Shown here in pieces: positions 40,806 through 64,000 of a stretch of 64,000 nucleotides of DNA; position 1 is the stretch's first letter, and every line of letters begins with the position of its first letter. Made by a program: the position numbers and the translations under genes. The DNA comes from an uncultured bacterium (GTDB lineage: Bacteria > Zixibacteria > MSB-5A5 > CAIYYT01): the NCBI GenBank assembly GCA_963726455.1, contig CAVSCK010000004.1:1312001-1376000 (forward strand), read 5' to 3'. Under the pieces are notes generated by a model. It worked only from the letters and a program-made list of their open reading frames with translations, did no database searches and had not been told where the DNA came from.

Positions 40806-40856
40806 AACTCTTCCTGACTGGCAATGCTCATAGAACATAATCTCGAGGAATCACCC

Positions 40857-41720
40857 ATGTCGAAGACCAAAGTCGTTCTGATGATGACAGCCCTGATAGC
40901 GGCTATCATAGTTGAGTTGCCACAGCCGGCAGGGGCGCAAATTAGCTGGCTGCGACCGGAAAAAGACAAGACGGTCACGCTGCAAATGCTCCACGTCGCC
41001 TTGAACGGGGATTCATACATTGCGTTTCCGTCGTCATTGCTGTTCTTGTCCGGCCGATTCCCGATGGGCGAGAACCTGCACTTCGTAGCCGAATTCCCAA
41101 TGTCATACGTCAACTACGATCATGACTATTTCGACTGGTACTCTCAACGCAAAATCAGTTCACAGACTCTACTGGGAAACCCTTATCTCGGGGTAGAGAC
41201 AAGTAAGCCGGGATCGACTGCTATTTTCAAACTCGGAGGCCGAATCCCGATCGCGTCGAAGGAAAAAGATGACGCTGCCGCTTTGGGAGTATTAGGCGCA
41301 TTCGATCGCGCTGAAGGATTTGGTCCGGATATTTTCTCCGCGACAATGCAAGCCGGTTACCGATATGACAGTGAATCCGGATACACTCTGAAAGGTCTGA
41401 TCGGCCCGACACTTCTGGTAAGTACCGCGTCCGGGCAAGATCACTCATCCGAGGTATGGGCTGATTATCAGGGAGAAGTCAGATTGCACGGAAGCCGGCT
41501 CACTGCCGGCATAGGACTGACTGGACGATATCTGCTGTCCGCCGAGCATGTCGGTGATATGACATTCGGAGAACGCATTGTCAACCAGGTCGGATTCGCA
41601 ATGACGGTCGACGCCGGGCGGATCGAACCGGGAGTTCACGTCCAGGTGCCGCTTGATGAAGATTTGAATGACGCGGTGCAAGTAGTTTACGGACTGGTTC
41701 TGACAGTCAAATTGGATTGA
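40857..41720 (+). CDS. Exported hypothetical protein, probable outer-membrane beta-barrel
   Basis: RBS GAGGA; signal peptide; alternating amphipathic strands; LGNPYLG; terminal strand YGLVLTVKLD. Confidence 0.6.
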   Translation: MSKTKVVLMMTALIAAIIVELPQPAGAQISWLRPEKDKTVTLQMLHVALNGDSYIAFPSSLLFLSGRFPMGENLHFVAEFPMSYVNYDHDYFDWYSQRKISSQTLLGNPYLGVETSKPGSTAIFKLGGRIPIASKEKDDAAALGVLGAFDRAEGFGPDIFSATMQAGYRYDSESGYTLKGLIGPTLLVSTASGQDHSSEVWADYQGEVRLHGSRLTAGIGLTGRYLLSAEHVGDMTFGERIVNQVGFAMTVDAGRIEPGVHVQVPLDEDLNDAVQVVYGLVLTVKLD

Positions 41721-41755
41721 CCTTTGAACTGAGGACGGAGGATTTCCGAGCCGTC

Positions 41756-41785
41756 GGAGGGGCTTATGCAGACACACAGAATCAA
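41756..41785 (+). repeat. 30-nt exact direct repeat (RBS plus first codons), copy 1
   Basis: ggaggggcttatgcagacacacagaatcaa, identical to 42570-42599. Confidence 0.95.
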
Positions 41786-42491
41786 GATTACAGTGATCGC
41801 GGCGTTCGTGGGATTGTTGCTTCTGGTATGCGGCTGCACAATGGTCGGACTGGCGGCTGGATCGCTGGTAGATGAACACAAACCGAAGCAGAACATACTA
41901 AAAGCCAGTCAATTCCTCGATCTCAAGATCGGTACCCGACTTAGTGTCACATTGAATGACGGCACAACAACTTCCGGAAAGCTCGCGGGACTTACACCTG
42001 CCGAGCACACGCGTTTTCTCGATTCTTATTCACAGGCCCGGTTACACGGTGAAGGGGCGATCTATCTGCCTGCAATCAATGATACCTGTTTTGTGCTGCC
42101 CCAGAAGGGCGTTTGGACGTGCTGTGAATTTGTGGATGTCTCTTATGGCGTCGTCACCGACAGGTGGCGCTTTTGCTTTACCGTGAGACTGCCGGATTCC
42201 AACCTGACGCGGAACTATTGTCTTGATGAAATCGTGGCAATCAAGAACTCAGATGGAGGGTTTGTCACCAGCGAACTCCTAAATAGACTGATCACGGATT
42301 CCGACTACTTAGTGCCATTAGCTGCGGTTGAAATCATTAATGACTTCGGCAGACAGCTAATCCCAATCGAGAATATTGCCTCCGTCGCCGTTCCGAATCA
42401 CAGACATGGACAGCTAATCGGCGGGCTGATCGGCGGTATTCTGGATGCCGCATTGATATCATTAGCTATCGGAATATCGGCATCCATGTAG
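41766..42491 (+). CDS. Hypothetical lipoprotein with Gly-rich hydrophobic helices at both ends
   Basis: Lipobox VCGC; VGLAAGSLVD; C-terminal GQLIGGLIGGILDAALISLAIG. Confidence 0.7.
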   Translation: MQTHRIKITVIAAFVGLLLLVCGCTMVGLAAGSLVDEHKPKQNILKASQFLDLKIGTRLSVTLNDGTTTSGKLAGLTPAEHTRFLDSYSQARLHGEGAIYLPAINDTCFVLPQKGVWTCCEFVDVSYGVVTDRWRFCFTVRLPDSNLTRNYCLDEIVAIKNSDGGFVTSELLNRLITDSDYLVPLAAVEIINDFGRQLIPIENIASVAVPNHRHGQLIGGLIGGILDAALISLAIGISASM

Positions 42492-42569
42492 GAAGTAGGG
42501 CTGAACCTTGATCGCGAGGTACCGGTCGGTCAGTAAGAATGAAGAAAGAAGAGAAGTGTTGAACCCAAT

Positions 42570-42599
42570 GGAGGGGCTTATGCAGACACACAGAATCAA
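42570..42599 (+). repeat. 30-nt exact direct repeat, copy 2
   Basis: Identical to 41756-41785. Confidence 0.95.
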
Positions 42600-44502
42600 A
42601 GTTACGATGATCGCCGCGTCCCTGGGACTGTTGCTCTTGCAGTGCGGTTGCTCTTTGATCGGATTGGGTATTGGTTCCCTTGTCGATTCCGGGAAACCCA
42701 AGGAGAAATCGGTCGAGATCTGGCAACTAGTCAATGTTAAGCGGGGAACACAGGTCAGGATCGTCACCAACGGCGGCCAGGTAGTATCCGGAGAATTTTG
42801 CGGCGCCACTCTTATGACCCGCGATGCATTTCGCGACGCCTACATACAGGCCCGCCGTGATAATCCGGATTGCCGCGATCTGCCCGCCATCGGCGACACG
42901 GTCGCCTTGTTCGGACGTGGCGGCATGAAGGTCGAGGGTGAATTGGTGGGAGCAGAATTGTCATCGCATGAAGAGGGATGGGACTATTTCGTGCAGGTGC
43001 GCCAACTCCGTGATGATGAGACGCGCTTCTGCAATCTTTCGGATGTCGTCGAGATTCGCAAACCGTCCGGCGACAGAATGACCGCGACCCGTTTTCAGGA
43101 GTTGATTTCATTATTCGGCTCCAAGACCCTGTCGGCAGTCACGCTGTGCGAGGCGGGAGTGCCACACGAGCTTGCGCTGGACACAGTGAGTTTCGTGAAT
43201 GTACCGACCAAGCGGAGCGCAGCAACAACCGGCTTTCTTATCGGCGCGGTGGTAGACGCCACTATTATCGTCATCGCCGTGGCTGCATCACAGCATGATG
43301 ATCCGCCACCGTCGCCACCGAGTTCGGATTCGACCATTACGGGGTGTCCATTCTTCTATAGTTACGACGGCAGCGGGTATACTTTGGATGCCGAGCCATT
43401 GGGGGCGGTCGTCTGCCAAGCCATGCAGAAGAGTGATCTCGTTTTGCTTCAGCATCTTCAGGAATCGGAAGGCCAGTACCGCATACGTGTCACCAGCGAG
43501 TTGGCGGAAACTGAAGTGCTGGATGAAGTCAGACTGCTTGCAGTCGACTGTCCCGATTCCATTGAGGTCATACCTTCGTCCAACGGCAGCTTGCACACTT
43601 TCACTTCGTCGAATTATCCAATTCGCGCATACAATTATTGCGGCGCCGATATTCTCCGACAGGTGAAGGCCAGGGATGACGAATGCTGGATCAGCAATCC
43701 ATTTGGCAGAGATCCACACGCAGCCGATCAACTTCGGGATGGCGTCGAACTGGAATTTACCAAACCGGCATCCGCCAAGAGAGTGAAGCTTGCGGTTTGT
43801 TCTCAGAATACCAAGTGGGGCGCGGAAAAGCTGAATGGGGTGATCAAGCTGCTGGGGTCGGAAGCTGACAACTGGTACACCCAGTTGGCTGCCTCTCCAT
43901 TGGCCAAGACAGCGCTGGAACAGGCAATGATTCGTGAAGGTATGCTCACGATCAAGTTGTGGAATGGTGTCTCGTGGACCGACGCCGGATTCATCTGGGC
44001 GGTTGGACCGAGACTCGAGAAGACTGAGTCAGTCGAATTGGACATCAGCAAAATTCAGGGCGAACGGCTCAAAATTCGTCTCGAATCCACCGCCGGATTC
44101 TGGATGATCAATAATGTGATGGTTGATTATTCCGCTGATCGGCAATTACAGGTCACCGAGCTGTCGGCTGTCGCCGCAACCGACTATCAGGGTCATGATC
44201 TGCAAACTTTGCTCGCCAAAAGCGACAACAAATATTATGTCATGCCGACGAATGCAGATCGCGCCGATATCGTTTTCGATGCGCCGCCGCTTGAGCCGGG
44301 AATGACGCGCACACTGATTCTGAAATGTTCCGGGTATTACAACATTCATATTCCCGCCAACAGCGAACCACACCTGACGTTAATGGCGCAGCTAATCAGC
44401 CAGCCGGGCGCTTTCGGCCACTGGGCGCTGGACGCACTGGAACGGGAAGTACCTGAGATGTTTATGGTTAACAAGAAAATGTTGGCTCGATCGTCGGATT
44501 GA
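42580..44502 (+). CDS. Paralog of the 41766 protein fused to a ~390-aa domain starting GCPFFYSYDG
   Basis: Same MQTHRIK leader, QCGC lipobox, IGLGIGSLVD, LPAIGDT and GFLIGAVVD; Pro/Ser linker, then the extra domain. Confidence 0.7.
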   Translation: MQTHRIKVTMIAASLGLLLLQCGCSLIGLGIGSLVDSGKPKEKSVEIWQLVNVKRGTQVRIVTNGGQVVSGEFCGATLMTRDAFRDAYIQARRDNPDCRDLPAIGDTVALFGRGGMKVEGELVGAELSSHEEGWDYFVQVRQLRDDETRFCNLSDVVEIRKPSGDRMTATRFQELISLFGSKTLSAVTLCEAGVPHELALDTVSFVNVPTKRSAATTGFLIGAVVDATIIVIAVAASQHDDPPPSPPSSDSTITGCPFFYSYDGSGYTLDAEPLGAVVCQAMQKSDLVLLQHLQESEGQYRIRVTSELAETEVLDEVRLLAVDCPDSIEVIPSSNGSLHTFTSSNYPIRAYNYCGADILRQVKARDDECWISNPFGRDPHAADQLRDGVELEFTKPASAKRVKLAVCSQNTKWGAEKLNGVIKLLGSEADNWYTQLAASPLAKTALEQAMIREGMLTIKLWNGVSWTDAGFIWAVGPRLEKTESVELDISKIQGERLKIRLESTAGFWMINNVMVDYSADRQLQVTELSAVAATDYQGHDLQTLLAKSDNKYYVMPTNADRADIVFDAPPLEPGMTRTLILKCSGYYNIHIPANSEPHLTLMAQLISQPGAFGHWALDALEREVPEMFMVNKKMLARSSD

Positions 44503-44632
44503 AACGCCTTTCGACAAAGGATAAGTACTGATCGATCCCATAAGTAGAGGGCAGTGTTGACGGGCTTCCGGGCGATACTGGTTGCCGGTCCGGCGAACCG
44601 TCGTAACAGACTGCCTTGAAAGGCAAGGTCTT

Positions 44633-45457
44633 ATGGGATCAAATCAGAACGACTTCCCTAATTACAAGACGAACAATCCAATCGCGCGAAAGCCATTAGC
44701 TTATCGCTGCCTGGCGTTGACCGGCTCGTTTGAAACCGGTCTCTCGATTCCCTATTGTTTCAGCGCCATCGCCGGGAACTTTGACGGCAAGGGCCTGAGC
44801 TTCGGCGTCCTGCAGTGGAATTTCGGTCAGGGCACACTGCAACCCCTGTTGGCCGAAATGCTGCTCGCCGATCCCGGCGCCATGAAATCCATCTTCGGCG
44901 AACGACTCAATCACCTTCAACAGGCGCTCAATTCCTCGCAAAAAGCAACGCTCGAATTTGCGCACGGCATCCAGCATCCGATCAAACATTTCATTTTCGA
45001 ACCCTGGCACAGCATGTTCACAAAACTGGGTGAATCGGAACAATTCCGTACCATCCAAATGAACTCCGTCGCTCCACGCTTTAAAAGTGCGGTCCAGCTT
45101 TGTGCAACTTTTAATCTCAAATCCGAACGCGCTGTTGCCTTGATGTTCGATATTCAGGTGCAAAACGGCGGCATCCCTGCCCGCTTGCGACGGCTAATAC
45201 GACAGCACATCGCCTTCCTCCCCGCCTCCCTCGGCGGTCTCGACCACGAAGTTCAGAATCTGCGCGTGATTGCCAATATCCGCGCTGCTGGCTGTCGTCC
45301 GCGCTGGGTCGCTGATGTCCTCGCCCGCAAACTTTGCTGCGCCGAAGGCAATGGAGTGGTCCACGGAATCAGCTACGATCTTGAAACCGATTTTGGAATC
45401 GGACTCAGGCCCTTTGATTTTCGCCGTGTCTGCAATGACGAGAAAAAGTGTACCTAA
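44633..45457 (+). CDS. Putative lysozyme-like (peptidoglycan hydrolase) domain protein
   Basis: TGSFET...NFDGKGLSFGVLQWNFGQG and ERAVALMFDIQVQNG resemble lysozyme-superfamily domains usually fused to PG-binding modules. Confidence 0.5.
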   Translation: MGSNQNDFPNYKTNNPIARKPLAYRCLALTGSFETGLSIPYCFSAIAGNFDGKGLSFGVLQWNFGQGTLQPLLAEMLLADPGAMKSIFGERLNHLQQALNSSQKATLEFAHGIQHPIKHFIFEPWHSMFTKLGESEQFRTIQMNSVAPRFKSAVQLCATFNLKSERAVALMFDIQVQNGGIPARLRRLIRQHIAFLPASLGGLDHEVQNLRVIANIRAAGCRPRWVADVLARKLCCAEGNGVVHGISYDLETDFGIGLRPFDFRRVCNDEKKCT

Positions 45458-48240: not shown

Positions 48241-49104
48241 CTAGCTTTCCGACTTCCCGAACGCCAAAGGATCAATTAGATCCTCGTGTCTACGAGCGAA
48301 AAGCCGACTGGCGTCGAGTTGCTTGAAGAGAGAGTACTTCTCTGCCAAGGGCTTGAATTTCTCCCTTCCCTTCTCACTCAAGCAGTCATAGAAGATTAGA
48401 ATTAGTTCGTCCAATGAAAGCCGTGATCTTATAAGATTAGTGTAAAACTTGCTGTTCTCGATCTCACTTTGATCAATGAACTTGATAATATTATAAAGTG
48501 TCCGGAAGTAGTAACCAAAATCCGACTCATACTTTAGGAAATTTCGCATGAACACCTTGTTTATCGTGTCCATTTCAGAGTCGCCCGAATTCATTGCGGC
48601 TCCTTTAAATTCAGATTTCAGCACCCTGTTCATTTCCTCAAAGGCGTCCCGGCCCACGAACCGAGCCTTAATTGCCTTGCTACGTTCTGTCATCGTCAAC
48701 CTGTCAAGGGTGTAATCATAGATCTTCAGAAGCTCGAAAAAGGAAGTCTCGAACCTCTGCTGCCTGAGGGTGATATTCTGAGCCTCTAACTGCTCTTTCT
48801 GTCCGCGTAGTTCGGCCCGCGTTTGCTCCAGTTCCTCTCGCTGCAATCTCAATTCGTCCGATTGTACTCTGAGCTGTTGACGCTGCAACCTTATCGATAT
48901 ATAGAAGGCGACAAACGCAAAAGCGGAGACCAGTACCGAAGCGACTGCGAAGAAGTCTCCAACAAGTGAATATGTCGGGACACTTCCAGTAGGAACACGA
49001 TTTACTATCCAGAGGACCGCAAAAATCGCAAATGCCCAGATTACCCCCACCACCCATAGAATCCGACTCAAACTAGCCACGTGTTCCTGCGATTCGTCTG
49101 ACAT
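48241..49104 (-). CDS. Putative phage abortive infection protein (AbiC-like)
   Basis: Two TM helices, a Q/E-rich coiled coil, then QQRFETSFFELL...YFRTLYNIIKFID...KFYTNLIRSRLS...KFKPLAEKYSLF. DNA is visibly AT-richer than the flanks. Confidence 0.75.
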   Translation of the reverse strand: MSDESQEHVASLSRILWVVGVIWAFAIFAVLWIVNRVPTGSVPTYSLVGDFFAVASVLVSAFAFVAFYISIRLQRQQLRVQSDELRLQREELEQTRAELRGQKEQLEAQNITLRQQRFETSFFELLKIYDYTLDRLTMTERSKAIKARFVGRDAFEEMNRVLKSEFKGAAMNSGDSEMDTINKVFMRNFLKYESDFGYYFRTLYNIIKFIDQSEIENSKFYTNLIRSRLSLDELILIFYDCLSEKGREKFKPLAEKYSLFKQLDASRLFARRHEDLIDPLAFGKSES

Positions 49105-51659: not shown

Positions 51660-52760
51660 GTGCTTTTGCGGGACAAGCAATTACGGCTTGCCAAAAGGCG
51701 GCCTGCGAGCGATAATTCGGTCGTGATTCGTGGGATCGCCACCGCCGCAGTCTGTTTTCTGATATTCACTGCAAAGATTATCGCTCTCCAGCTTGATTCC
51801 GGCTATGTCGCTACCGTGCGGGAAGGAATCAACTTGACTCTGAATGAGCGATTTGACGAAGCCAAGAAACTGTACCAGGGCTTGATCGTGCGGGACACGA
51901 CGGATTGTGCCGCTTATCTGTTTCTGGCCGGCGCCTGGCATGCCGAGATGTTCGACCGCGAGGACTATAGTAATCAACCGCAGTTCGATAGTTTGATTGA
52001 AAAGGCAATAAGTCTGGCTGACCGAGCGATAAAGGAGAATCGCAATCCTGCGTGGGCACATCTGGCCAAAGGGAATGCGTACGCCTACATCGCGACACTG
52101 GAGACCAGAACCGGGTCATGGTGGGGAGCACTGCGCAAGGGGCTGGCGGCCAAAGGCGAATATCTCGAAGTGCTGAAGCTTGAGCCGCGCCTGTATGACA
52201 CGTATCTCGGACTCGGAAGTTATCATTACTGGAAATCAGCCAAGACGGAATTTATCAACTGGATACCGCTGGTTCCTGATCGTCGGGATGAAGGTATCGC
52301 GGAATTGCAGATCGCCGTCGACTCGTCGCTATTCTGCAACGATGTGGCCGCCAACTCGCTGGTATGGATCTATCTTCACAGCGGCCGCGCGGGCAAGGCG
52401 TATGATATCGCCGCCGGACTGCACAGCAAATTTCCGGACAGTCGCCTGTTCACCTGGGGGATGGCGTTCTCCAGCTATTATTGCGGCCAACTGGCGGAGT
52501 CGGCGGACTATTTCGGCAAGATTCTGGAGATGATCGAAAACCAGCCGGGGCAAAACAATTTCAATACCGTCGAATGCCGGTATCATCGCGCGGAAATATT
52601 TCACTCACTGCACCAGAATGATCGGGCTTTAGAGGAACTGCGAATTCTCCTGGGTTATCCTCTCAGCGACGATGTCAAGGATCGGCAGAAACACACTCTC
52701 CAAAGGGCGCGGGAATCTATTGGAGCAGTTGCAGGCCAAGTAACTGCGTTGCCTGCCTAG
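51660..52760 (+). CDS. Exported TPR-like helical protein (start uncertain)
   Basis: Signal-like hydrophobic segment; TPR-like units such as YDTYLGLGSYHY. Confidence 0.7.
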   Translation: MLLRDKQLRLAKRRPASDNSVVIRGIATAAVCFLIFTAKIIALQLDSGYVATVREGINLTLNERFDEAKKLYQGLIVRDTTDCAAYLFLAGAWHAEMFDREDYSNQPQFDSLIEKAISLADRAIKENRNPAWAHLAKGNAYAYIATLETRTGSWWGALRKGLAAKGEYLEVLKLEPRLYDTYLGLGSYHYWKSAKTEFINWIPLVPDRRDEGIAELQIAVDSSLFCNDVAANSLVWIYLHSGRAGKAYDIAAGLHSKFPDSRLFTWGMAFSSYYCGQLAESADYFGKILEMIENQPGQNNFNTVECRYHRAEIFHSLHQNDRALEELRILLGYPLSDDVKDRQKHTLQRARESIGAVAGQVTALPA

Positions 52761-53467
52761 GTACTGCGATTTCGCAAGACGGCGAACTTCTCCATAGCCG
52801 CCGAGGCGATCAAGCTGGTAGCCAAGTCAATTGAAATCGTCTGATGATTGATCACCAGGTCGTAGTAGATCGGGTCGTCGATCGACTTGCCGAAAGTCTC
52901 CTTAATAAAGTGGCTGCGTTCGTGGTCTGTCAGATCGACTTGTTCGGTCGCCTGTTTCTCGGTCAGGTTCTCATACTGCATCAGGTTTTGTATGCGAATG
53001 TCGCGCGGGGCGATCACGCGGATATGAAATCCGAGTTCATGCCCGACGATGAAATTCGCGCCTCTGCCGACCACAACCACTCCGCCCAGCCGCGAAACCG
53101 TGTAGATGATTGCCAGCAGATGTTTCATGTAGTCCGTGTGGTCCAGATACTTGCCGCGCAGCATCCCCTCGAACCACATTTCCATTTGCGAGTGCGAATG
53201 TTCATCAAGTGATTCGATGATGCGGCGCTTGTAGCCGGTCGATTCCACCATGCGGTCGATGATGTCGCGGTCCAACAGGGTGTAATTGAATTTCTCCGCC
53301 AGTTTTCTGGCAATGACGGTTCCACTGCTGCCACGCTGCCGTGAGATGGTTATCACGGGCTGGTGCGTTTCCTGCAGGGCTTTGCCGGTCACTTCCGCCG
53401 CACGAATCGATTTTTCGAGTTCCCAACGGCGCAACTGTCGGTCAATAATAGCTTCTATCGAGGTCAT
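52757..53467 (-). CDS. Cytidylate kinase-like family protein
   Basis: VITISRQRGSSG, VVVGRGANF, YDLVIN; start at the ATG 53467 after a purine-rich RBS. Confidence 0.85.
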   Translation of the reverse strand: MTSIEAIIDRQLRRWELEKSIRAAEVTGKALQETHQPVITISRQRGSSGTVIARKLAEKFNYTLLDRDIIDRMVESTGYKRRIIESLDEHSHSQMEMWFEGMLRGKYLDHTDYMKHLLAIIYTVSRLGGVVVVGRGANFIVGHELGFHIRVIAPRDIRIQNLMQYENLTEKQATEQVDLTDHERSHFIKETFGKSIDDPIYYDLVINHQTISIDLATSLIASAAMEKFAVLRNRST

Positions 53468-53723
53468 ATATTTCCCCTTCTCTTGATTCGCCCAGTAAAT
53501 ATACGTCCAGCAAGAGCAAGCGACAAAGACAAAGTACAATATCCGCACGGTTCTGCCATTTCTTTGACGAGCAAAGTCGGGCTGCATCGGAAATCAGGCG
53601 CCAGCAACAGTCCGGATAGCCCAGAATTGCAACTTCATCGAGTGGTTTTCGTTAGTTCCTATTGACAGACGCTGATTCTTGATTAACTTAGAAGTTACAT
53701 CTACTTTCCTAAAGGAACAATCT

Positions 53724-55979
53724 ATGACAGACTGCAAATGCTTGAAAAGCTATCCTTGCGTCATTCTGCTAATACTGTTTCTGATGGCCGCCACAGCGCC
53801 GGCCCAGCAGAATGCGAATTCCGCCAAATGGACTGAAGGAGCCAACGTCAAGATCAACCATGATGCCAGCATCGGGCTTCAAAACGAGGCAGCTTGCGCG
53901 ATTCTGCCATCCAATCCGGACAATGCGGTGGCCATCTGGCGCGACTTCCGGTTGGGATTCCGTCGTATCGGTGTCGGAACCACTGCCGATGCAGGAAGCA
54001 ACTGGTCGGATTCTCTTCTCGTGGGCACGACGAGCTATCCGCGCGCATCCGACCCGGTAATGAGCTACACCGCCGATGGTGATATACTGGCGTGTGTGCT
54101 CTCATTGTCGCCGGATGAATCCATCAGCGCAATTCATGTGTATCGATCCACCAACGCCGGCGCCAGTTGGTCAGCGCCGCTCGCGGCAGTAGATGATGGA
54201 GGCGCGTCAGGATTCGAAGACAAACAGTGGATCAATGTCGACCGAACTAACAGCCCGTTTCGGAATCGGGTGTATATCCCGTGGACACGGTTTGGCGCCA
54301 ATACCAACATCATGCTGGTCTATAATGAGTCGCCGAGCCAATACTCGCAGCCGGTTCAGGTATCGGATTTTCCGAGCGTGCAGTGGCCGAGTGTTGCGAT
54401 TGGCCCGGATGGCACAGTGTACGTCGCGTGGATTTCGTTTTATTTCGGACGAATCATGATCGACCGCTCCTATGACGGCGGATCGAGCTTTAACATTGAC
54501 GGAACGGTGACGTCGATCGGCCTCACGAACAATGTAATTAACGGCGGCATCCTGGTGTTTGCCTACCCCGCAATGGATATTGATATCAGCGGCGGAGTGT
54601 ATAGCGGCAACGTCTACATCGCCTACAGCGACTATGCAGCCGATGGTGATCTAGACCTGTTCGTCCGCCGGTCGACCGATCAGGGATTCACCTGGTCAAG
54701 CCCGGTACGTATCAATGACGATCCCATAGGAAACCATGTCGATCAGTTCCACCCCTGGATTACTGTGGACGAGGACGGCATCCTGACCGCGACCTGGCTT
54801 GACCGCCGCCTGGATCCCAACAACTACAATTGGGATACCTACATGGCGCATTCCTTTGATGGCGGGCAGACCTGGACGGCCAATCGCCGTATCTCCGAGG
54901 TGTCGTCATCGCCGTCGTACGCTGCCAAGCAGACGCTTGACGTGCAATATGCGGCGCTGAACCTGCCGGGCAAGCCGGCCGGTGAACCATACAATGCTGC
55001 CCGCAGCCCGATGGCGGGATTGATCGGCGAGTATTTGGCACTGTCCACGCGTTCAGGAATGGCTCAAGTCATTTGGCCTGACACCAGAAACGGTAATCAA
55101 GATGTCTACAGTGCGCGCGTCACTATTGGATTTTCCGCGCCGCCACTCTATTTGCCGGCGAAGGATGCGATCACGAATAATAATCAGCCGACCTTCCACT
55201 GGGGAAACTCCGGAGCGAGTCCGGCGCAGATCGCACAATTTCCCAACACCAAAGTACAGCCGCTACATTACGTGTTGCAGGTTGATGATGACTCATTGTT
55301 TGGATCGATCGATTTTGCCCAATCGGGGATTGCCACGACGAGCCATCAGTTTGCAGGGGTAATACCTGACGGCCTCTGGTTCTGGCGTGTGTATGCCGTG
55401 AATGATTCGGGAAGAACGACGGGATTCTCGGAGCCGGGCCGCAGACTTACGATCGACACGCAGGCGCCGGCACTGCCCACTATTCTCAAGCCGGAACCAG
55501 ATTCGCTGGTTGACTATCAAACTCAGGTCTACCAATGGACAGCCGTCTTAAAGCTATTGCCGGCAACGCCCGTGAAGTATCAGATCCAGATCTCGCAGGA
55601 TTCGACATTCGTCACGGCGCCGATTTCGGTCGCGAATCTTTCCACAACAACATACACCAACTCGGTAGCTTTGCTGCCGGATGCTACCTATTATTGTCGC
55701 GTTTCAGCCACGGATGCTGCGACAAACACCAGTGGCTTCACAGCTCCGCGCCGGTTTCATACCAGAGCGTCATATGTTTGCGGCGACGCCGATCACAGTG
55801 GCGCTGTCGATATATCTGATGCCGTGTACCTGATCGCCTACATTTTCTCCGGTGGAGCCGCGCCGAATCCATTGGCGGCCGGGGACCCTGATTGCAGTGG
55901 TTCGGTAGATATTTCGGACGTGGTTTTCCTGATCGCGTACATATTTTCCGGGGGCCCGGCGCCTTGCAGCGCGTGCTGA
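53724..55979 (+). CDS. Secreted BNR/Asp-box (sialidase-like propeller) protein with two FN3-like domains and a C-terminal dockerin-like module
   Basis: Signal peptide; STNAGASWS, SYDGGSSF, STDQGFTWS, SFDGGQTWT; duplicated GDADHSGAVDISDAVYLIAYIF / GDPDCSGSVDISDVVFLIAYIF at 55779-55976. Confidence 0.85.
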   Translation: MTDCKCLKSYPCVILLILFLMAATAPAQQNANSAKWTEGANVKINHDASIGLQNEAACAILPSNPDNAVAIWRDFRLGFRRIGVGTTADAGSNWSDSLLVGTTSYPRASDPVMSYTADGDILACVLSLSPDESISAIHVYRSTNAGASWSAPLAAVDDGGASGFEDKQWINVDRTNSPFRNRVYIPWTRFGANTNIMLVYNESPSQYSQPVQVSDFPSVQWPSVAIGPDGTVYVAWISFYFGRIMIDRSYDGGSSFNIDGTVTSIGLTNNVINGGILVFAYPAMDIDISGGVYSGNVYIAYSDYAADGDLDLFVRRSTDQGFTWSSPVRINDDPIGNHVDQFHPWITVDEDGILTATWLDRRLDPNNYNWDTYMAHSFDGGQTWTANRRISEVSSSPSYAAKQTLDVQYAALNLPGKPAGEPYNAARSPMAGLIGEYLALSTRSGMAQVIWPDTRNGNQDVYSARVTIGFSAPPLYLPAKDAITNNNQPTFHWGNSGASPAQIAQFPNTKVQPLHYVLQVDDDSLFGSIDFAQSGIATTSHQFAGVIPDGLWFWRVYAVNDSGRTTGFSEPGRRLTIDTQAPALPTILKPEPDSLVDYQTQVYQWTAVLKLLPATPVKYQIQISQDSTFVTAPISVANLSTTTYTNSVALLPDATYYCRVSATDAATNTSGFTAPRRFHTRASYVCGDADHSGAVDISDAVYLIAYIFSGGAAPNPLAAGDPDCSGSVDISDVVFLIAYIFSGGPAPCSAC

Positions 55980-56018
55980 TTTACTAGCGGATTAGCCGGA
56001 CCGGAAAATGATTGATTT

Positions 56019-56055
56019 GAGGGCCAAGTCTTAACGGCTTGGCCCTCTTCTTCTT
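56019..56055. terminator. Hairpin terminator between convergent genes
   Basis: gagggccaag-tcttaacgg-cttggccctc followed by ttcttctt. Confidence 0.7.
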
Positions 56056-56060
56056 GGTAG

Positions 56061-56381
56061 TCAGCTAATTTCGACGAAAAGGCTCTCATCTTCGATGATG
56101 ACCGGATAGGTTTTCAGACTTGCCCACGACTCAGTCAGACAGGTTCCGGTCGGAATGTCATACTGCCAACCATGTGCGGGACATGTAATTGTGGTTCCTG
56201 AAATCGTGCCGTGGGCGATCGACGCCTTCATGTGCTTGCAGTCCGCCTCCAGACCGTAAAACGTGCCGGCGATATGGAAGACAGCGACTCGGCGAGCCAG
56301 AACCTTGATGGTCCTGGATTCACCCTCGGCAAGCTCCCGGACTGTGCAGACTCGAACCTTCACTCTCCCAATATAGGTCAT
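56061..56381 (-). CDS. Small Rieske [2Fe-2S] ferredoxin
   Basis: CKH and CPAHGWQYD motifs. Confidence 0.9.
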   Translation of the reverse strand: MTYIGRVKVRVCTVRELAEGESRTIKVLARRVAVFHIAGTFYGLEADCKHMKASIAHGTISGTTITCPAHGWQYDIPTGTCLTESWASLKTYPVIIEDESLFVEIS

Positions 56382-56632
56382 GTTGGCACTCAGTTCCATG
56401 AGTTTGCGGGGACAGTTCCGAACAATGCCGTGCTAGAATGGGTAATTTCGACTCCAGAGGCATTGAATCTCGGCGGTCGAAGTGGTCTGTCAATGCCAGT
56501 GTTTCCGGCCGGATTTCTGACTCCGGAGCTTATATACCCGAATGTGGGAAACGTCCGATAGGATGCCAACGTATCCTGATGAAAAACAAGAGATTAAATG
56601 CTCACAAATACTGCGGATTTGACAAAAAACGC

Positions 56633-56661
56633 TTGACAAATAGCCCCCATTAATTCATATT
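56633..56661 (+). promoter_or_regulatory. sigma70-type promoter of the giant protein gene
   Basis: TTGACA-N17-CATATT; a second TTGACA at 56619. Confidence 0.55.
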
Positions 56662-57070
56662 AGGATAAATTTGCACCGGTACTTCTAAAGTACTTCATAA
56701 ACGAAATTAGTTATAGGAATTTGCGGTGATGGGCTGGGTGGTCTTCAGAGAGTATTGTATCGATGAAGTTGACGGGATTGACGCGAAAGTCAGAGACTAA
56801 AAGGCGGAGCGAACTTTCCGAATTGTGATGTCGCTCGTCTCCGGGTTTCCCTGTTCCGTCCGGTGAAGTAACTGATTGTAGTCTAAACAGAGTGGAGAGT
56901 CAAGCGGCACAAACGTTATCGTGTACTCAAATCTGTCGCGGTTAGCAGCCGCACAAGTGGGGTCTTAACGCTCAGGGAGAAGTGTACCCTGGGGATATTA
57001 TTTGGAGCACTATTTTTCGTGAATCAAGAATACAACATCCTCTCAGAACCTTTGGGACATTGGAGTCATT

Positions 57071-60000
57071 ATGAGCAGGTCTTGGCTTAGACTAACACTC
57101 CTCTTCGTTGTCAGTCTAACTGGAGTTCTACTTACCTCTTCAGCGTACGCAGCCAGCGTTGCCACCGACACGACAGATTACGCGCCCGGTGACACCGTTT
57201 TCGTTAGTGGCAGCGGTTTCGGACCGAACGAGACAGTTCGCGTTCAGATAAGTCATGTTGATACGACCGTAGTCGGCCTGGGACATGACCCGTGGAATGT
57301 CACCACCGACGCCGCCGGTGCATTCGCTACGAAGTGGTATGTGGATTACGATGACAACGTCGACGCGTTGCTGCTGGTCAAAGCCGATGGACTGACGTCG
57401 CTGCTGCATGCCGATACGCTCATTGTCGACTGCAATGTAGACCTGCGGCTACTGAATTGGCATGAGCATGATTCAATTTGTCCGGGTGGAACTAAGCAAA
57501 TTGTGGCGAATCTGCGGCAGGACTGCGGCTCCAAGTCCTACGCCCCGCTGGCCGGAAGAAAGCTCATATTCTTCGTAAATCCGGGCAACTGTGGCGTCAA
57601 CCAAGGGCAAAACGGTGACACGGTTATTACCGACGCCAACGGCAATGCATATTACACGATGACGGCGCCAAATACTCCGGGAGTGGCGTCGGTTCGTGTC
57701 AAATTCCTGGGCGAACCCAAGCCGAGTCCCTGCCCCTATCCGGGCAACAGCCCTTGTTTTCCAAATGACCCAAACTCGAATAAGAGATGTACCCAGCTTT
57801 CCGCGGTAAATACCTGCAACACCATAACCGTGGGAACGAGCGGCCATGCTCCGGTTGCCAATGCGGGCAGAGATACGACTGTCTTCCAATGTGCGGTGGC
57901 GCCGATCAGCATAGCGGCTAGTTGCTCTGACGTGGACGGCAACCTTGCGAGTTGTCAGTTGATCAGCGGTCCGGGAAGTTATAACGGCTCTGCAATCGTG
58001 TTCACTCCCAGCGGCGCCGGCACCTTCACGTTCATACTTAAGGCAACTGACGGCTGTGGAATGACGGATTATGATACGTCTGTTGCGACGGTCACTCTGA
58101 ATAGAGCCCCGGTTGCGAATGCGGGCAGAGACACTACTTTGGCACAGTGCACTCCGGCGGTGATTAGTATTGCGGCGAATTGCTCTGATCCTGACGGCAA
58201 CCTGTCGACCTGCCAGTTGACCAGCGGACTTGGGACGTATAATGGTACCGCGATTGTGTTCACGCCGACGGGTTCGGGTACATACACGTTCATATTGAAA
58301 GCGACCGATGCCTGCGGCGCGATAGACTATGACACCTCGGTTGCTCACGTGACTTTGAACCAAGCACCAGTTGCCAATGCCGGACGTGATACGACACTAT
58401 CACAATGCACACCGGCTGCAATTAGTATTGCGGCGAACTGTTCCGATCCTGACGGCAATTTGTCGACCTGCCAGTTGTTCAGTGGACCGGGAACCTACAA
58501 CGGTTCTGCTATCGTATTCACGCCGACGGGAAGTGGAACTTACACTTTCATCCTGAAAGCTACCGATGCTTGCGGCGCGACTGACTATGATACTTCTGTA
58601 GCTCATGTGACGCTCAATCAGGCGCCAGTTGCCAATGCCGGCAGAGATACGACGCTGTCACAGTGCACACCTGCTGCAATCAGTATTGCCGCGAACTGCT
58701 CTGATCCTGACGGCAACCTGTCGACCTGCCAGTTGACCAGCGGACTTGGGACATATAATGGTACTGCAATCGTGTTCACGCCGACGGGAAGTGGTACTTA
58801 CACTTTCATCTTGAAGGCCACTGATGCGTGCGGTGCGACAGATTATGACACCTCGGTTGCTTACGTAACTCTGAATCAAGCGCCGGTTGCCAATGCGGGT
58901 AGAGACACGACACTGTCACAATGCACACCTGCTGCAATTAGTATCGCCGCGAACTGTTCTGATCCTGACGGCAACTTGTCGACCTGCCAGTTGAGCAGTG
59001 GACTCGGATCATACAATGGTACAGCGATAGTGTTCACACCGACTGGTTCGGGCACATACACATTCATCCTGAAAGCTACTGATGCCTGCGGCGCGATTGA
59101 CTATGATACTTCAGTTGCTAATGTGACTTTGAATCAGGCACCTGTCGCGAATGCCGGCAGAGACACGACATTATCTCAATGCACACCGGCTGCAATTAGC
59201 ATTGCCGCGAACTGCTCAGATCCTGATGGCAACCTGTCGACCTGCCAGTTGACCAGCGGACTTGGAACTTACAATGGTACAGCGATAGTGTTCACACCGA
59301 GTGGCTCGGGTACGTACACGTTCATATTGAAAGCTACGGATGCCTGTGGCGCGACGGATTATGACACCTCGGTCGCTTATGTGACTTTGAATCAAGCACC
59401 GGTTGCCAATGCGGGACGCGATACGACACTGGCCCAGTGCACACCGGCGGCGATCAGTATAGCCGCGAACTGCTCTGATCCTGATGGCAACCTGTCGACC
59501 TGCCAGTTGACCAGCGGACTCGGATCATACAATGGTTCAGCGATTGTGTTCACGCCGACTGGAAGTGGCACCTACACGTTTATTCTCAAAGCCACCGATG
59601 CTTGCGGTGCGACAGACTATGATACCTCGGTTGCTTACGTAACTCTGAATCAAGCGCCAGTTGCCAATGCGGGTAGAGACACGACGCTGTCACAGTGCAC
59701 ACCTGCTGCAATTAGTATTGCCGCGAACTGCTCTGATCCTGATGGCAACCTGTCCACCTGCCAGTTGACCAGCGGACTTGGAACTTACAATGGTACTGCA
59801 ATCGTGTTCACGCCGACGGGAAGTGGTACTTACACTTTCATCTTGAAGGCCACTGATGCGTGCGGTGCGACAGATTATGACACCTCGGTTGCTTACGTGA
59901 CTCTGAATCAGGCACCGGTTGCCAATGCGGGCAGAGACACGACACTGTCTCAGTGCACACCGGCTGCAATTAGTATCGCCGCAAGCTGCTCTGATCCGGA

Positions 60001-63000
60001 TGGCAACTTGTCGACCTGCCAGTTGTTCAGCGGGCCGGGAACCTACAACGGCACCGCGATTGTGTTCACGCCGACGGGATCAGGTACATACACGTTCATA
60101 TTGAAAGCGACCGATGCTTGCGGCGCGACTGATTATGACACTTCAGTTGCTAATGTGACTTTGAATCAGGCACCAATTGCGAATGCGGGCAGAGATACCA
60201 CACTGTCACAGTGCACACCGGCGGCAATTAGTATCGCTGCCAATTGTTCTGATCCCGATGGCAACCTGTCGACCTGCCAGTTGACTAGCGGTTTCGGGAC
60301 ATATAATGGTACCGCGATTGTGTTCACGCCGACGGGATCAGGTACATACACGTTCATCTTGAAAGCTACTGATGCTTGCGGCGCGACTGATTATGATACT
60401 TCAGTTGCTAATGTGACCTTGAATCAAGCACCAGTTGCGAATGCGGGCAGAGATACCACGCTGTCACAGTGCACACCGGCTGCGATCAGTATTGCCGCCA
60501 ACTGCTCTGATCCTGATGGCAACCTGTCGACCTGCCAGTTGACCAGCGGACCGGGAACCTATAATGGTACCGCAATCGTGTTCACGCCGACTGGTTCAGG
60601 TACCTACACGTTCATCTTGAAAGCTACCGATGCTTGCGGCGCAACAGACTATGATACTTCGGTTGCTTACGTAACTCTTGAATCAAGCGCCTGTCGCCAA
60701 TGCGGGCAGAGACACGACACTGTCACAGTGCACACCGGCTGCAATTAGTATCGCCGCGAACTGCTCTGATCCTGATGGCAATTTGTCCACCTGCCAGTTG
60801 ACCAGCGGACTTGGAACTTACAATGGTACTGCGATTGTGTTCACGCCGACTGGTTCTGGCACTTACACATTCATCCTGAAAGCTACCGATGCTTGCGGCG
60901 CGACAGACTATGATACTTCGGTTGCTAACGTGACCTGAATCAAGCGCCGGTTGCCAATGCGGGCAGAGACACGACGCTGTCACAGTGCACCCCGGCTGCA
61001 ATCAGTATTGCGGCGAACTGCTCTGATCCTGATGGCAACCTGTCGACCTGCCAGTTGACCAGCGGACTTGGAACTTACAATGGTACCGCGATTGTGTTCA
61101 CGCCGACTGGAAGTGGCACTTACACGTTCATCTTGAAAGCTACTGATGCCTGCGGCGCGACAGACTATGATACCTCGGTTGCTCATGTGACGCTCAATCA
61201 AGCTCCGGTTGCGAATGCGGGCAGAGACACGACACTGTCACAGTGCACACCGGCTGCAATTAGTATCGCCGCGAACTGCTCTGATCCTGATGGCAACTTG
61301 TCCACCTGCCAGTTGACCAGCGGACTTGGAACTTACAATGGTACTGCGATTGTGTTCACGCCGACTGGTTCAGGCACATACACGTTCATCCTGAAAGCGA
61401 CCGATGCTTGCGGCGCGACAGATTATGACACTTCAGTTGCTAATGTGACTTTGAATCAGGCACCGGTTGCCAATGCGGGACGTGACACGACACTGTCACA
61501 GTGCACACCGGCTGCAATTAGTATCGCCGCGAACTGCTCTGATCCGGATGGCAACCTGTCGACCTGCCAGTTGACCAGCGGACCAGGAACATATAATGGT
61601 ACCGCAATTGTGTTCACGCCGACTGGTTCGGGCACATACACATTCATCCTGAAAGCCACTGATGCGTGTGGTGAGACGGACTACGATACTTCGATTGCCC
61701 ATGTGACTATCAATCAGGCGCCCGTAGCGAATGCCGGCGCCGACCAGAATTTGACCTGCCAGGCGCTGGGACAGCAGATTTGCTGGACCGCCGGCTGCAG
61801 CGATCCGGACAACGACCTGGCGACCTGTCAACTGGTGTCAGGTACGGGAACCTACAGCGGTGGCCAGATTTGCTTCAACCCAACAGCGAGCGGCTCCTAT
61901 CAGTTCGTGCTGAAGGCAACTGACGCTTGCGGCGCTACTGACTATGACACCGCGGTGGTGAACGTGCGGATTAACGTGGCGCCTACGCTTAATGTGGCGG
62001 CGAGCGATACCACCATCTTCTGTCAGCAATCAGGGGTAGGCCAGGTTTGTGTGGCATTCAACTATTCGGACGCCGACGTGAATCTCAAGCAAATCACGGC
62101 CTCCGGTTCGCCGACGCCGACACTCAGCTATGGCGGTGGCAACGGCACAATCTGCTTCAATCCAACAGCCGGCGGGAACTTCTCGTTTACGCTAACGGCT
62201 TTGGATAGCTGCGGTCTGCAGACCCAGGTGTCGCATAATCATTTCGTTACGCTGGTGGACTGCGACACTATCAGCCGGTTTGCGGTGAAAGTACAGAAGA
62301 CGCACAATTCACTGCAAGGTCAATACGAGTTTGTCAGTGTAACGATTACCGGCGACGGCGCCGACTTTGGCGGCTTTGACTTCCTGTTGTCCTATGATGC
62401 ATCGGCGCTGACGGCGATGGAAGTACAGCCGGGACAGATGCTGACTTCCTGCGACTGGGAATACTTCACCTATCGTTTTGGCGCCAACGGCAATTGCGGC
62501 GGACCATGCCCATCCGGACTGCTCCGAATTGTCTCGATCGCGGATGTGAACAACGGAGCCCACCATCCGAGCTGTTACGGCCCGGCGATACCGTCATCGA
62601 GCGAACTGTTCAAGGTTAAGTTCTTTGTGACCAACGACCGCACCTTCGATTGTCAATATGCGCCGGTCAAATTCTTCTGGATGGATTGCGGCGACAACAG
62701 TATTTCCAGTGTCACCGGCGATACTCTCTTTGTCGACAAGCGCATCTATTTGTTCGAAGGCCAGACGATCTGGGACGAACTTGACGATGCCCAGTATCCT
62801 GACGGCATCCGCCCGAACGGCATGGGCGCTCCGGATGAATGCATGCTCGGCGACAAGTATCATCCGAGCCGGAGCATCGAATTCCGGTATGGCGGTGTCG
62901 ATATCGTCTGCGCCGACTCAATCGACGCACGCGGTGATCTCAACCTGAACGGAATTGCCAACGAGATTTCCGACGCGGTGCTTTACACCAATTACTTCCT

Positions 63001-63751
63001 GTATGGCATATCCGCGTTCTACGTGGCGCCGCGACAGGAAGCTCAGGTGGCAGCATCCGATGTCAACGCCGACGGCCGGCCGCTGACGGTTGGAGATTTG
63101 GTTTTCCTGATCAGAATCATCACCGGTGATGCTCTGCCGATCGCCAAGCTGGCGCCATTCGCCCAGGAAGTGGTCGTGCATTACGACGGCAATTCTCTGA
63201 GCACCGAGTCGAGCACCAATATCGGCGCGATGCTGCTGACCTTCAGAACGAATGGAGAATGCAGCTTCAACAACCTGACGGATCTGACGCTGAAGCAGAC
63301 ATCTGCCGACGGTGAATTGAAGGTGTTGGTCTACGACATTTCCGCCAAGTCGATTGCAGCCGGATTAAGCCATGTCCTGCGGGTTGACGGCGACGCGGTA
63401 CTGGAATCGGTTGAGATAGCTGATTACCAGGGCAACCTGATGCTGGCGAAGATTGACAAATCCGCGGTGCCGACTGAGTTTGCTCTTGGCCAGAACTATC
63501 CGAATCCATTTAATCCCGAGACGGTGATCGAATTCGCGTTGCCGACGGCCAGTGAGATGTCGCTTACCGTATATAATATTGCCGGCCAGACCGTCGCGAC
63601 GATCATCAACGGCACCGTGCCGGCTGGTTATCATCAGGTCAGATGGAACGGCAAAGACGACAACGGCACCAATGCTTCTTCGGGAATTTACTTCTACAAG
63701 ATCGTTTCGAAGGACTTCTCCGAGACGCGCAAGATGTTGTTGATTAAGTAG
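57071..63751 (+). CDS. Giant secreted repeat protein (~2,226 aa): N-domain, 16 Ig/PKD-like repeats, cohesin-like, dockerin-like and T9SS/FlgD-like CTD; compensating +1 (60678) and -1 (60936) indels
   Basis: ORFs 57071, 60678 and 61055 continue the same repeat, and the first and last share a frame. Motifs APVANAG, GTYTFILKATD, GGFDFLLSYD, RGDLNLNG...ISDAV, SDVNADG...VGDLV, QNYPNPFNP...RKMLLIK. Confidence 0.88.
57848..61978 (+). repeat. Intragenic tandem array of 16 units of ~258 bp (86 aa)
   Basis: Units start at 57848, 58106, 58364 ... 61460 and 61718. The inner 14 are nearly identical in protein; the first and last diverge. Confidence 0.95.
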
Positions 63752-63782
63752 CATCGCGACTGCAACAGCATCGTAGAGATAG

Positions 63783-63820
63783 AAACAAAACCCCGCTCAC
63801 TTTGAGCGGGGTTTTGTTTT
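63783..63820. terminator. Bidirectional intrinsic terminator
   Basis: aaacaaaaccccgctca-ctt-tgagcggggttttgttt between convergent genes. Confidence 0.9.
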
Positions 63821-63843
63821 GCAGTCTTGTGTGGAAGGATAAA

Positions 63844-64000
63844 CTAAGCCGTGTTGTTCGCCAGATATTGTACTGCCAGCAGATAGCTCCAGACTCCGAA
63901 TCCACTGATTACACCGACCGCTCCGCGCGCCGTGATCATGGTGTGCCGGAACTCCTCGCGACGATAGACATTCGACAGATGAACTTCGACCGCTTTCACT
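63844..64000 (-). CDS. aroQ: Type II 3-dehydroquinate dehydratase, C-terminal part
   Basis: Manual translation [51 protein letters not shown]. Confidence 0.93.

Follow-up and report, generated by a model that had tools for sequence, protein, structure and literature searches.

What does a giant repeat-stalk protein do when it carries both a cohesin-like and a dockerin-like module and belongs to an uncultured member of the Zixibacteria? This question is raised by two plus-strand genes in a 64,000-nucleotide stretch of genomic DNA, the whole of which we refer to as the window (C4:1312001-1376000, C4 being the contig of the window; coordinates are window positions unless prefixed C4). The larger gene ends in a cohesin-like domain (CohZ), a dockerin-like domain (DocZ), a beta domain, and a sorting domain of the T9SS (type IX secretion system), and the smaller gene upstream of it encodes a beta-propeller protein with a terminal dockerin. 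The genome amounts to 3.64 Mb in 5 contigs and has a completeness rating of 100%. Our preferred answer, which we hold with moderate confidence, is that the giant gene encodes a T9SS-anchored surface fibril and that this fibril is one of the nodes in a non-cellulosomal cohesin-dockerin network spanning the genome. The folds of the modules, their order, a census of the genome, and the T9SS components are established below; from them we infer the surface location of the protein, the binding steps, and the pairing of dockerins with cohesins.

Fold and arrangement of the cohesin-dockerin cassette

The giant gene encodes, in order, a signal peptide, an N-terminal Cys-rich/Ig head, a PKD/cadherin-like stalk, further Ig domains, the cohesin, the dockerin, the beta domain, and the T9SS sorting domain. 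The last four modules, which we call the cassette, are contained in a tail of 510 residues (62219-63748). An earlier reading of this DNA, referred to here as the original prediction, had described a Cys-rich, cohesin-like beta domain followed by two calcium-loop/helix repeats and a secretion domain at the C terminus. We modeled the whole tail with AlphaFold2 from 42 homologs and obtained a predicted local distance difference test score (pLDDT) of 84.7 and a predicted template-modeling score (pTM) of 0.51. The model consists of a beta sandwich (residues 20 to 230), three helices (250 to 302), a second beta domain (317 to 413), and the sorting domain (435 to 508). A second AlphaFold2 model, restricted to the cassette, reached a pLDDT of 88.6 and a pTM of 0.73.

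Structure searches assigned the beta sandwich to the cohesins. The matches listed by Foldseek were mostly cohesins, for example, 2vn5_C (E = 1e-8, TM score 0.78) and 4uyq_A (TM score 0.81 on the target). VIA, a fold search against 48,161 chains that is independent of Foldseek, placed 5nrk_A first (Z = 16.4, 141 of 143 residues, root mean square deviation [rmsd] 2.0). All entries at ranks 1 to 20 were cohesins, with Z scores from 16.4 to 10.3 and 130 to 154 residues aligned; unrelated pilin-like folds followed at Z scores of 8.5 or lower, after the cohesins and the dockerins. With two AlphaFold2 models, Foldseek, and VIA in agreement, CohZ is predicted to have a true cohesin fold, though it is marginal by sequence, and the earlier assignment of this domain is borne out. 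Some homologs of the tail bear a precomputed match to the Pfam Cohesin family (PF00963). The nearest clusters in the ESM Atlas, in which 11 to 50% of the members have Dockerin_1 or Cohesin, are consistent with the assignment and add nothing to it. CohZ carries insertions amounting to about 70 Cys-rich residues, with the conserved motifs GGFDFL, WEYFTYR, CPSG, and FFWxDCGDN, and eight of its cysteines are conserved in 40 to 49 of the 49 aligned homologs.

The dockerin fold of DocZ emerged from the same VIA search, where ranks 21 to 23 fell on model residues 217 to 297: 4fl4_A (Z = 10.2), 2ccl_B (Z = 10.0, 62 of 62 residues, rmsd 1.7), and 5m2o_B (Z = 9.7). Both of the proposed calcium-loop/helix repeats are present, with D, N, N/D, and G at loop positions 1, 3, 5, and 6 invariant or nearly so in each. 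As modeled, DocZ has the duplicated calcium-loop/helix fold (F-hand pair) of a dockerin. Read from the sequence, its two loops are each one residue longer than those of the dockerin in the neighboring gene. CohZ passes into DocZ without a linker, through a conserved junction (C-ADSIDAR-GD) whose length 48 of 49 homologs share. The surface residues of both modules are highly conserved across the phylum. The predicted secretion domain proved to be a T9SS type A sorting domain, which lies above the family cut-offs with both models: TIGR04183 gave 38.7 to 43.4 bits (cut-off 23) and Por_Secre_tail (PF18962) gave 30.5 to 36.2 bits (cut-off 27).

Dockerins, cohesins, and sorting domains across the genome

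A census was made of all stop-to-stop open reading frames (ORFs) of at least 60 residues, using profiles iterated from the window's own modules. These profiles recovered 157 dockerin domains, spread over 147 ORFs; a sorting domain was present in 55 ORFs and, with the places found by the Pfam cohesin model added, a cohesin in 18. The Pfam and NCBIfam models gave similar numbers, namely 152 dockerin, 17 cohesin (4 of them above the cut-off), and 53 sorting-domain matches. Of the 147 dockerin ORFs, 137 have the dockerin at most 15 residues from the C terminus. A dockerin is combined with a sorting domain in just 5 ORFs, each of which also contains a cohesin. Seven ORFs, the giant gene among them, join a cohesin to a sorting domain, five join a cohesin to a terminal cargo-type dockerin and have no sorting domain, and about 142 have a dockerin only. 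That the two C-terminal tags are nearly exclusive of each other, and that every ORF with both is a cohesin carrier, is the strongest sequence-level argument for a two-tier design.

About 138 of the terminal dockerins are strikingly uniform, scoring 73 to 122 bits on the genome's own dockerin profile. Their consensus has one cysteine before the first loop, another in the second loop, and one or two more at the very end. DocZ-type dockerins score 38 to 51 bits on the same profile; there are 7 in the genome, every one of them in a cohesin-holding protein. One further frame, of 527 codons (C4:507298-508878, minus strand), consists almost entirely of tandem dockerins, four full Dockerin_1 domains and a partial one (123.6 bits in total); it would be a multi-plug protein and shows no obvious cargo domain.

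The families that accompany the dockerins were identified with Pfam at an E value of 1e-5 or better in all 147 ORFs, which were run in batches of 80 and 67. Peptidase catalytic domains were present in 25 ORFs (16 of 80 and 9 of 67). Eight belong to family S8, four to M1, and two each to C25 and M14, and C1, C10, C11, C39-like, M4, M6, M12, M23, and M43 peptidases are each present once. Propeller repeats were the other recurrent class, with partly overlapping counts: LVIVD in 7 ORFs, SBBP in 6, FG-GAP in 10, and BNR/Sortilin and NHL in 3 each. One ORF encodes a peptidylarginine deiminase and four have a beta-helix, and in many the dockerin is the sole family. None of the 147 ORFs had a Glyco_hydro family. 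A cellulosome was considered as an identity for the system and rejected, because no glycoside hydrolase but 25 peptidases occur among the dockerin ORFs; the giant protein itself, with one cohesin and no carbohydrate-binding module (CBM) family in Pfam, is no cellulosome scaffoldin. The non-cellulosomal character that had been proposed for the assembly therefore holds at the scale of the genome. A home-made heuristic for signal peptides is too unspecific to weigh: it was positive for 383 of 873 long control ORFs, next to 113 of the 147 ORFs with a dockerin and 44 of the 55 with a sorting domain.

Secretion machinery

Components of a T9SS are present in the genome. SprA was matched with 636 bits summed (cut-off 200) and PorU with 720.8 bits (cut-off 420); beside PorU lies a PorV-like gene, which at 88 bits is well under its cut-off of 250.

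Type II secretion was considered as a route of export for the dockerin-only proteins and set aside, as the GspD, T2SSL, and T2SSK models, the three family models used, gave no dedicated system. The best GspD match (188 bits, cut-off 351) is the PilQ secretin of a pilM-pilN-pilO-AMIN-secretin cluster. The second is an ORF of 126 residues (C4:1815343-1815723, plus strand) that covers only the last 77 positions of Secretin (96.8 bits). T2SSL gave a single weak match of 20 bits, on PilM, and T2SSK had no match in the genome. A divergent type II system may have been missed by these three models, or the cargo may leave by other routes, such as the type IV pilus or Tad machinery or vesicles. The secretin fragment stands head to head with a Tad-like cluster of one T2SSE and two T2SSF genes on the opposite strand.

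The cassette family across the phylum

We surveyed 151 genomes from 88 genera of the phylum, which are related to one another and thus not independent samples, so that no statistics were drawn from them. The cassette is present in 140 of the 151 genomes and 81 of the 88 genera, mostly in several copies. Dockerin_1 is present in 148 genomes, and the 3 without it also lack the cassette. Searched alone, the 324-residue cohesin-dockerin stretch matched 1,679 cluster representatives at E ≤ 0.001; of these, 812 (48 to 70% identity) reached E ≤ 1e-30, and the single-copy matches were 50 to 67% identical. The whole tail matched 3,472 proteins at E ≤ 1e-10 among 8,000 candidates scored, typically with 48 to 65% identity across 96 to 100% of its length. 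The source annotation of these homologs is just "hypothetical" or "T9SS type A sorting domain-containing protein" of Zixibacteria. The proteins matched by the cohesin-dockerin stretch range in size from 574 to more than 3,000 residues, and the stretch usually sits about 200 residues from the C terminus behind varied N-terminal parts. Two of them, P0008 (2,180 amino acids [aa]) and P0017 (2,222 aa), share the tail of the giant protein and differ from it in their N-terminal parts where these were checked.

Within the genome of the window, the cassette has 14 matches. Several proteins of the family show that its modules are separable. P0001 (2,189 aa) has 6 matched stretches, in which some CohZ copies stand in tandem without DocZ, and a T9SS sorting domain; P0002 (1,644 aa), with 4 matched stretches, comprises three CohZ-DocZ-beta units, a further DocZ-beta unit, and a terminal dockerin of the cargo type. 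Both are thus true multi-cohesin proteins. A DocZ-beta unit without a preceding cohesin is found at the end of each, and in the paralogs C4_110770 and C4_175968 CohZ is followed directly by a cargo-type dockerin. By its domain order, P0002 looks like an adaptor scaffoldin. The beta domain recurs behind every DocZ in P0002, a placement that resembles, by analogy, that of the X module in X-dockerin pairs. A further copy of the cassette (C4:58306-59812, minus strand; 56 to 57% identical) has stop codons inside it and is either a pseudogene or another assembly error.

A proposed docking network

Taken together, these results suggest an arrangement in tiers. The first would be the cargo, about 142 Sec-exported proteins with only the uniform terminal dockerin, among them the 25 peptidases and many beta-propellers. 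The second would be the anchors, the seven cohesin proteins with a T9SS sorting domain to which the giant protein belongs, and the third would be adaptors, the five cohesin proteins that end in a cargo-type dockerin. Export guided by a C-terminal domain, cleavage by PorU with linkage to the surface, and the docking of a calcium-loaded dockerin in a cohesin are established steps of the T9SS and of cellulosomes. Applied to this locus, the sorting domain would lead the scaffold through SprA, and PorU would cleave the protein and fix it on the cell surface. CohZ, at the membrane-proximal base, could then hold a dockerin-tagged protein in a calcium-dependent manner, while DocZ and the beta domain might tie the scaffold to a further cohesin. 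The outcome would be a display of proteases and binding propellers on the cell surface.

Several results weigh against this model. By sequence, both modules fall short of their families: PF00963 gave CohZ 19.6 bits in the whole ORF and 19.1 bits for the segment (gathering cut-off 24.1), over profile positions 11 to 56 only, and Dockerin_1 (PF00404) gave DocZ 20.0 bits (gathering cut-off 22.9). A profile of the tail run against PDB sequences found no cohesin; it matched FlgD-like and PorU sorting domains, and the dockerin 3ul4_B at an E value of 0.25. The binding face of CohZ may be reshaped by its 70 or so extra residues and eight conserved cysteines, and the linkerless DocZ could cover it. 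Dedicated type II secretion for the dockerin-only cargo was not found with the three family models. The propeller gene next door has no counterpart near the cassette gene in the four relatives checked, as detailed below. Finally, the assembly interrupts the giant gene, and the ORF downstream of the interruption (61055-63751) begins within a repeat and has no signal peptide, so that this copy would be dead if the frameshifts were real.

The state of the gene bears on one alternative directly. The original prediction had spoken of one giant protein, yet the assembly shows two ORFs in its place (57071-60748 and 61055-63751). Frame 0 from 57071 is open over 2,226 codons except for one stretch with five stops (60746 to about 60930). 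The interruption is bounded by an extra T in "actcttg" right before 60681 and by a base lost in "acctg" right before 60938. Both changes fall at the identical position, the "VTLNQAP" junction, of two adjacent 258-base repeats; junction anchors are 258 bases apart elsewhere and 259, then 257, bases apart at the frameshifted repeat. If the frameshifts are genuine, the gene is a pseudogene, its tail would not be exported, and the locus would be inert in this organism whatever the family does elsewhere. The five in-frame stops and the truncated downstream ORF fit this explanation, and so does the cassette copy at C4:58306-59812, which holds stops as well. Random decay is unlikely to produce exactly compensating changes at the same position of adjacent repeats in a frame that is otherwise open. 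Family relatives have cassette-bearing open frames of 2,215 to 2,545 codons, and a second gene in the window, for a GH38 alpha-mannosidase (35224-39217), is frameshifted too, which suggests indel errors in the assembly. Because of the exact compensation, the open frames of the relatives, and the split GH38 gene, we consider the frameshifts to be probably assembly errors rather than decay, and a dead gene unlikely. Public reads touch the region at one point: one DNA run with a small word share yielded a single contig of 309 bases on 61424-61729 (90 to 95% likeness), which stops short of 60680-60936. No RNA run carrying the giant gene was among the public runs listed.

Two other explanations accept an intact gene and differ in what the cassette binds. 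In one, CohZ and DocZ make up a rigid pair closed on itself, with DocZ serving as a calcium-dependent clamp or occupying CohZ in cis; together with the beta domain, the pair would be the stalk base at the T9SS anchor and would recruit nothing, the terminal dockerins binding other cohesins. The conserved junction, constant in length in 48 of 49 homologs, points this way, as does the preservation of the roughly 500-residue tail as a unit, at 48 to 65% identity, behind unrelated N-terminal parts. The genome's more canonical cohesins, above the Pfam cut-off, could serve the cargo. Pfam-type cohesins are encoded at C5:151556-156425, on another contig. The pTM of 0.73 for the cassette alone, compared with 0.51 for the whole tail, also favors a rigid unit but is not decisive, since one domain makes up three quarters of the chain. 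What makes such a closed pair quite unlikely in our judgment is that its halves occur apart, CohZ without DocZ in the tandem array of P0001 and ahead of a cargo-type dockerin in C4_110770 and C4_175968, and DocZ with its beta domain but without a preceding cohesin at the ends of P0001 and P0002. The original prediction had raised the other explanation, head-to-tail polymerization, in which DocZ of one chain would enter CohZ of the next to build fibers or a surface mesh. One cohesin and one dedicated-type dockerin per chain, the confinement of all 7 DocZ-type dockerins to cohesin-holding proteins, and the phylum-wide conservation of surface residues on both modules would suit such a polymer. 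Chains fixed to the membrane through an adjacent sorting domain could, however, grow only sideways, and the multi-cassette proteins P0001 and P0002 look like scaffoldins rather than fiber monomers. Known proteins that combine cohesin and dockerin on a single chain serve as adaptors. DocZ is moreover of another type than the terminal dockerins, is joined to CohZ by a junction of fixed length, and has its own conserved beta domain behind it. We regard polymerization as unsupported and very unlikely.

We also considered an extension of the surface-network model in which docking precedes export: CohZ would capture dockerin proteins in the periplasm, and the carrier would take them through the wide SprA translocon. 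We give this proposal the slimmest chance of all. Four observations suggest it: the two tags almost never meet except on cohesin carriers (all 5 ORFs with both tags), the cohesin-dockerin stretch always sits immediately ahead of the sorting domain, the cargo dockerins have cysteines that suggest periplasmic folding, and the three family models found no type II parts in this genome, whose completeness rating is 100%. If it were true, the cohesin-dockerin pair would be a secretion adaptor for about 140 cargo proteins, beyond a surface glue.

Relation to known docking systems

Cohesin-dockerin docking is textbook knowledge for the cellulosomes of Gram-positive bacteria, and the number of dockerin proteins in this genome is on par with that of the largest cellulosome producers. 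The clostridial type I pairs (5nrk, 4uyp, 2vn5, 1ohz, and 2ccl) have the same folds as the modules described here (cohesin Z = 14.2 to 16.4 over 138 to 143 of 140 to 144 residues), and clostridial cellulosomes likewise have terminal, internally duplicated dockerins on their cargo and tiers resembling anchors, adaptors, and cargo. They differ in that the host here is diderm, that a T9SS sorting domain takes the place of SLH or sortase anchoring, and that peptidases and propellers, with 0 of 147 Glyco_hydro matches, make up the cargo. The cohesin here also has Cys-rich insertions of about 70 residues and a dockerin attached directly to it, and in sequence the modules lie at or under the Pfam cut-offs. 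Solved non-cellulosomal cohesins match CohZ as well: 2xdh_A of Archaeoglobus fulgidus at Z = 14.4, 2vo8_A at 13.1, and 2w1n_A at 12.1. The GH84 and GH33 cohesins of Clostridium perfringens (2w1n, 2vo8, and 2o4e) are, as here, modules outside cellulose degradation. These non-cellulosomal cases have a few modules per genome, in contrast to the 147 dockerin ORFs in 3.64 Mb and the phylum-wide cassette of this system.

In the amylosome of Ruminococcus bromii, proteins such as Amy4 combine a cohesin and a dockerin in one chain without forming a cellulosome. That host is Gram-positive and lacks a T9SS, the enzymes degrade starch, and linkers separate the modules. The tail of the giant protein also resembles T9SS type A cargo of the Bacteroidota (TIGR04183), in that a beta-sandwich domain precedes a C-terminal sorting domain scoring above the cut-off; to our knowledge, no described Bacteroidota cargo has a cohesin-dockerin cassette next to its sorting domain.

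The closest precedent is "Candidatus Stygibacter" of the Cloacimonadota, for which a cellulosome-like complex was predicted from sequence alone in 2021 in Front Microbiol (PMC8542988). Dockerin-tagged peptidases (S8/S53 and C25) and other enzymes are placed there on a cohesin scaffoldin, which a T9SS-type sorting domain would fix to the cell's own surface (PMC8542988). As far as that text describes it, the overall design is the same, in an uncultured diderm and likewise deduced from sequence, whereas the phylum is different and the scaffoldin has tandem cohesins with CBM2 and CBM3 and cargo that includes GH18 and GH57 enzymes (PMC8542988). Compared with that description, the giant protein has a single cohesin under a PKD-repeat stalk and a fused dockerin of a second type, and the system has no glycoside hydrolase cargo. 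The accessible text of a 2024 survey of cellulosome-displaying bacteria (PMC11557425) has no mention of the terms Zixi, Gram-negative, non-cellulosomal, protease, phyla, or outer membrane. A search of the open full-text literature, outside which most subscription journals lie, returned nothing linking Zixibacteria with dockerins or type IX secretion, and none of the broader literature matches listed joined Zixibacteria or Zixiibacteriota with cohesin, dockerin, or cellulosome.

The docking system is thus of a known kind. What is new is the phylum-wide family of fused CohZ-DocZ-beta-sorting-domain cassettes, together with the size of the dockerin repertoire, its bias toward proteases, and the problem of cargo export, given about 140 proteins without a sorting domain and no type II system found with three models. 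In this diderm candidate phylum, two folds known from cellulosomes seem to arrange proteases and binding proteins into an array at the cell surface. The cassette is a compact, defined module pair for binding studies and protein engineering, and it opens a way to study how these bacteria, which are abundant in sediment and soil, attack proteinaceous matter.

The giant gene and its propeller neighbor

The features of the two genes are collected in Table 1. The repeat array of the stalk has 85% matches and a Tandem Repeats Finder score of 4739, and Pfam gave it 165 bits for Cadherin_4 and 153 bits for PKD_4.

TABLE 1 Features of the two genes and the region between them (window positions)
Feature	Position	Strand	Basis or detail
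BNR (sialidase-like) beta-propeller gene, secreted	53724..55979	+	Propeller, Ig/fn3-like domains, and C-terminal dockerin, in that order
Terminal dockerin of the propeller gene	55782..55943	+	C4:1367782-1367943; Dockerin_1 28.0 bits in genome scan
Terminator-like hairpin	56019..56047	+	12 pairs, 8 of them G-C; 40 bases past the stop codon of the propeller gene
Giant gene, 2,226 codons in one frame	57071..63751	+	Interrupted by two compensating frameshifts
Stalk, 14.2 tandem copies of a 258-base (86-residue) PKD/cadherin-like Ig repeat	58063..61738	+	Tandem Repeats Finder
Out-of-frame repeat unit	60676..60940	+	Repeat-junction anchor spacing; frame order 0, 1, 0
CohZ, nine-strand-type beta sandwich, Cys-rich	62276..62908	+	AlphaFold2 models, Foldseek, VIA
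DocZ, two calcium-loop/helix repeats with a helix between	62924..63133	+	VIA Z 10.0-10.2; GDLNLNG...EISDAV, SDVNADG...TVGDLV
Conserved beta-sandwich domain	63167..63457	+	Tail-model residues 317-413; pLDDT about 85-93
T9SS type A C-terminal sorting domain	63497..63739	+	TIGR04183 43.4 bits at C4:1375497-1375739; FlgD_ig match too

The product of the propeller gene begins with a signal-peptide-like N terminus (from the ATG at 53724). BNR_2 matched it with 36.1 bits (Pfam cut-off 31.4), Big_13 and fn3 matched below threshold, and its translation contains five Asp-box-like S-x-D-x-G-x-[TS]-[WF] motifs. Its C terminus, as had been noticed, is a duplicated dockerin motif: Dockerin_1 passes the gathering cut-off of 22.9 with 24.1 bits in the whole protein and 28.5 bits for the segment alone, and the profile scan found no T9SS sorting domain. 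This dockerin is cysteine-flanked and internally symmetric, belongs to the type common to some 138 proteins of the genome, and is 48 to 77% identical to 39 aligned terminal dockerin paralogs. A complex prediction with tail residues 15 to 312 scored 0.03 and 0.05, where the mark is 0.32, with "no answer" as the tool's verdict; the result counts neither way.

Could this protein be the dedicated partner of the scaffold next to it? The 1.09-kb gap between the two genes contains the hairpin, and they are probably separate transcription units; terminator-like sites in the region number 3 against 3.3 expected from shuffling, so their total is not raised. We also examined four family relatives whose cassette gene tails are 62 to 63% identical. 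Within the 17 kb fetched around the cassette gene, none of the four had a homolog of the propeller-dockerin protein (E ≤ 1e-5), and the N terminus of the giant protein and two upstream genes were unmatched there as well. Dockerin ORFs occur once per 24.8 kb in this genome. With about 142 dockerin-only ORFs, a gap with a hairpin in it, and no conserved synteny, the adjacency says little: the propeller protein is one possible cargo among many and not a dedicated partner. The proposal that a C-terminal domain anchors the scaffold and that dockerin-only proteins plug into it fits the tag census and the T9SS components, which do not single out this neighbor as the particular plug.

Other features of the window

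A Pfam scan of 40 ORFs in the window found no cellulase, in agreement with the earlier reading; the sole glycoside hydrolase is the GH38 alpha-mannosidase. An Rfam search of 52000-64000 gave zero matches. The alpha-mannosidase gene (plus strand), which also has PA14 and chitobiase-C domains and lies just past a sugar ABC transporter, is split into two overlapping ORFs, 35224-36675 with the N-terminal and middle domains and 36563-39217 with the C-terminal domains. A second T9SS sorting-domain protein, of 527 residues and with no further Pfam family, is encoded at 3688-5271 (plus strand). Pfam at E ≤ 0.001 assigned no family to any of four successive ORFs at 40824-45457 (plus strand; 298, 241, 664, and 291 residues). 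An ORF of 287 residues at 48241-49104 (minus strand) has a putative abortive-infection AbiC domain (PF16872, 77.5 bits) and lies in the region of lowest G+C content in the window (0.496). An unusual fusion is encoded at 15273-18368 (minus strand), where one ORF of 1,031 residues unites PD40 beta-propeller repeats and a peptidase MA-like region with an Omp85 barrel domain at its C terminus.

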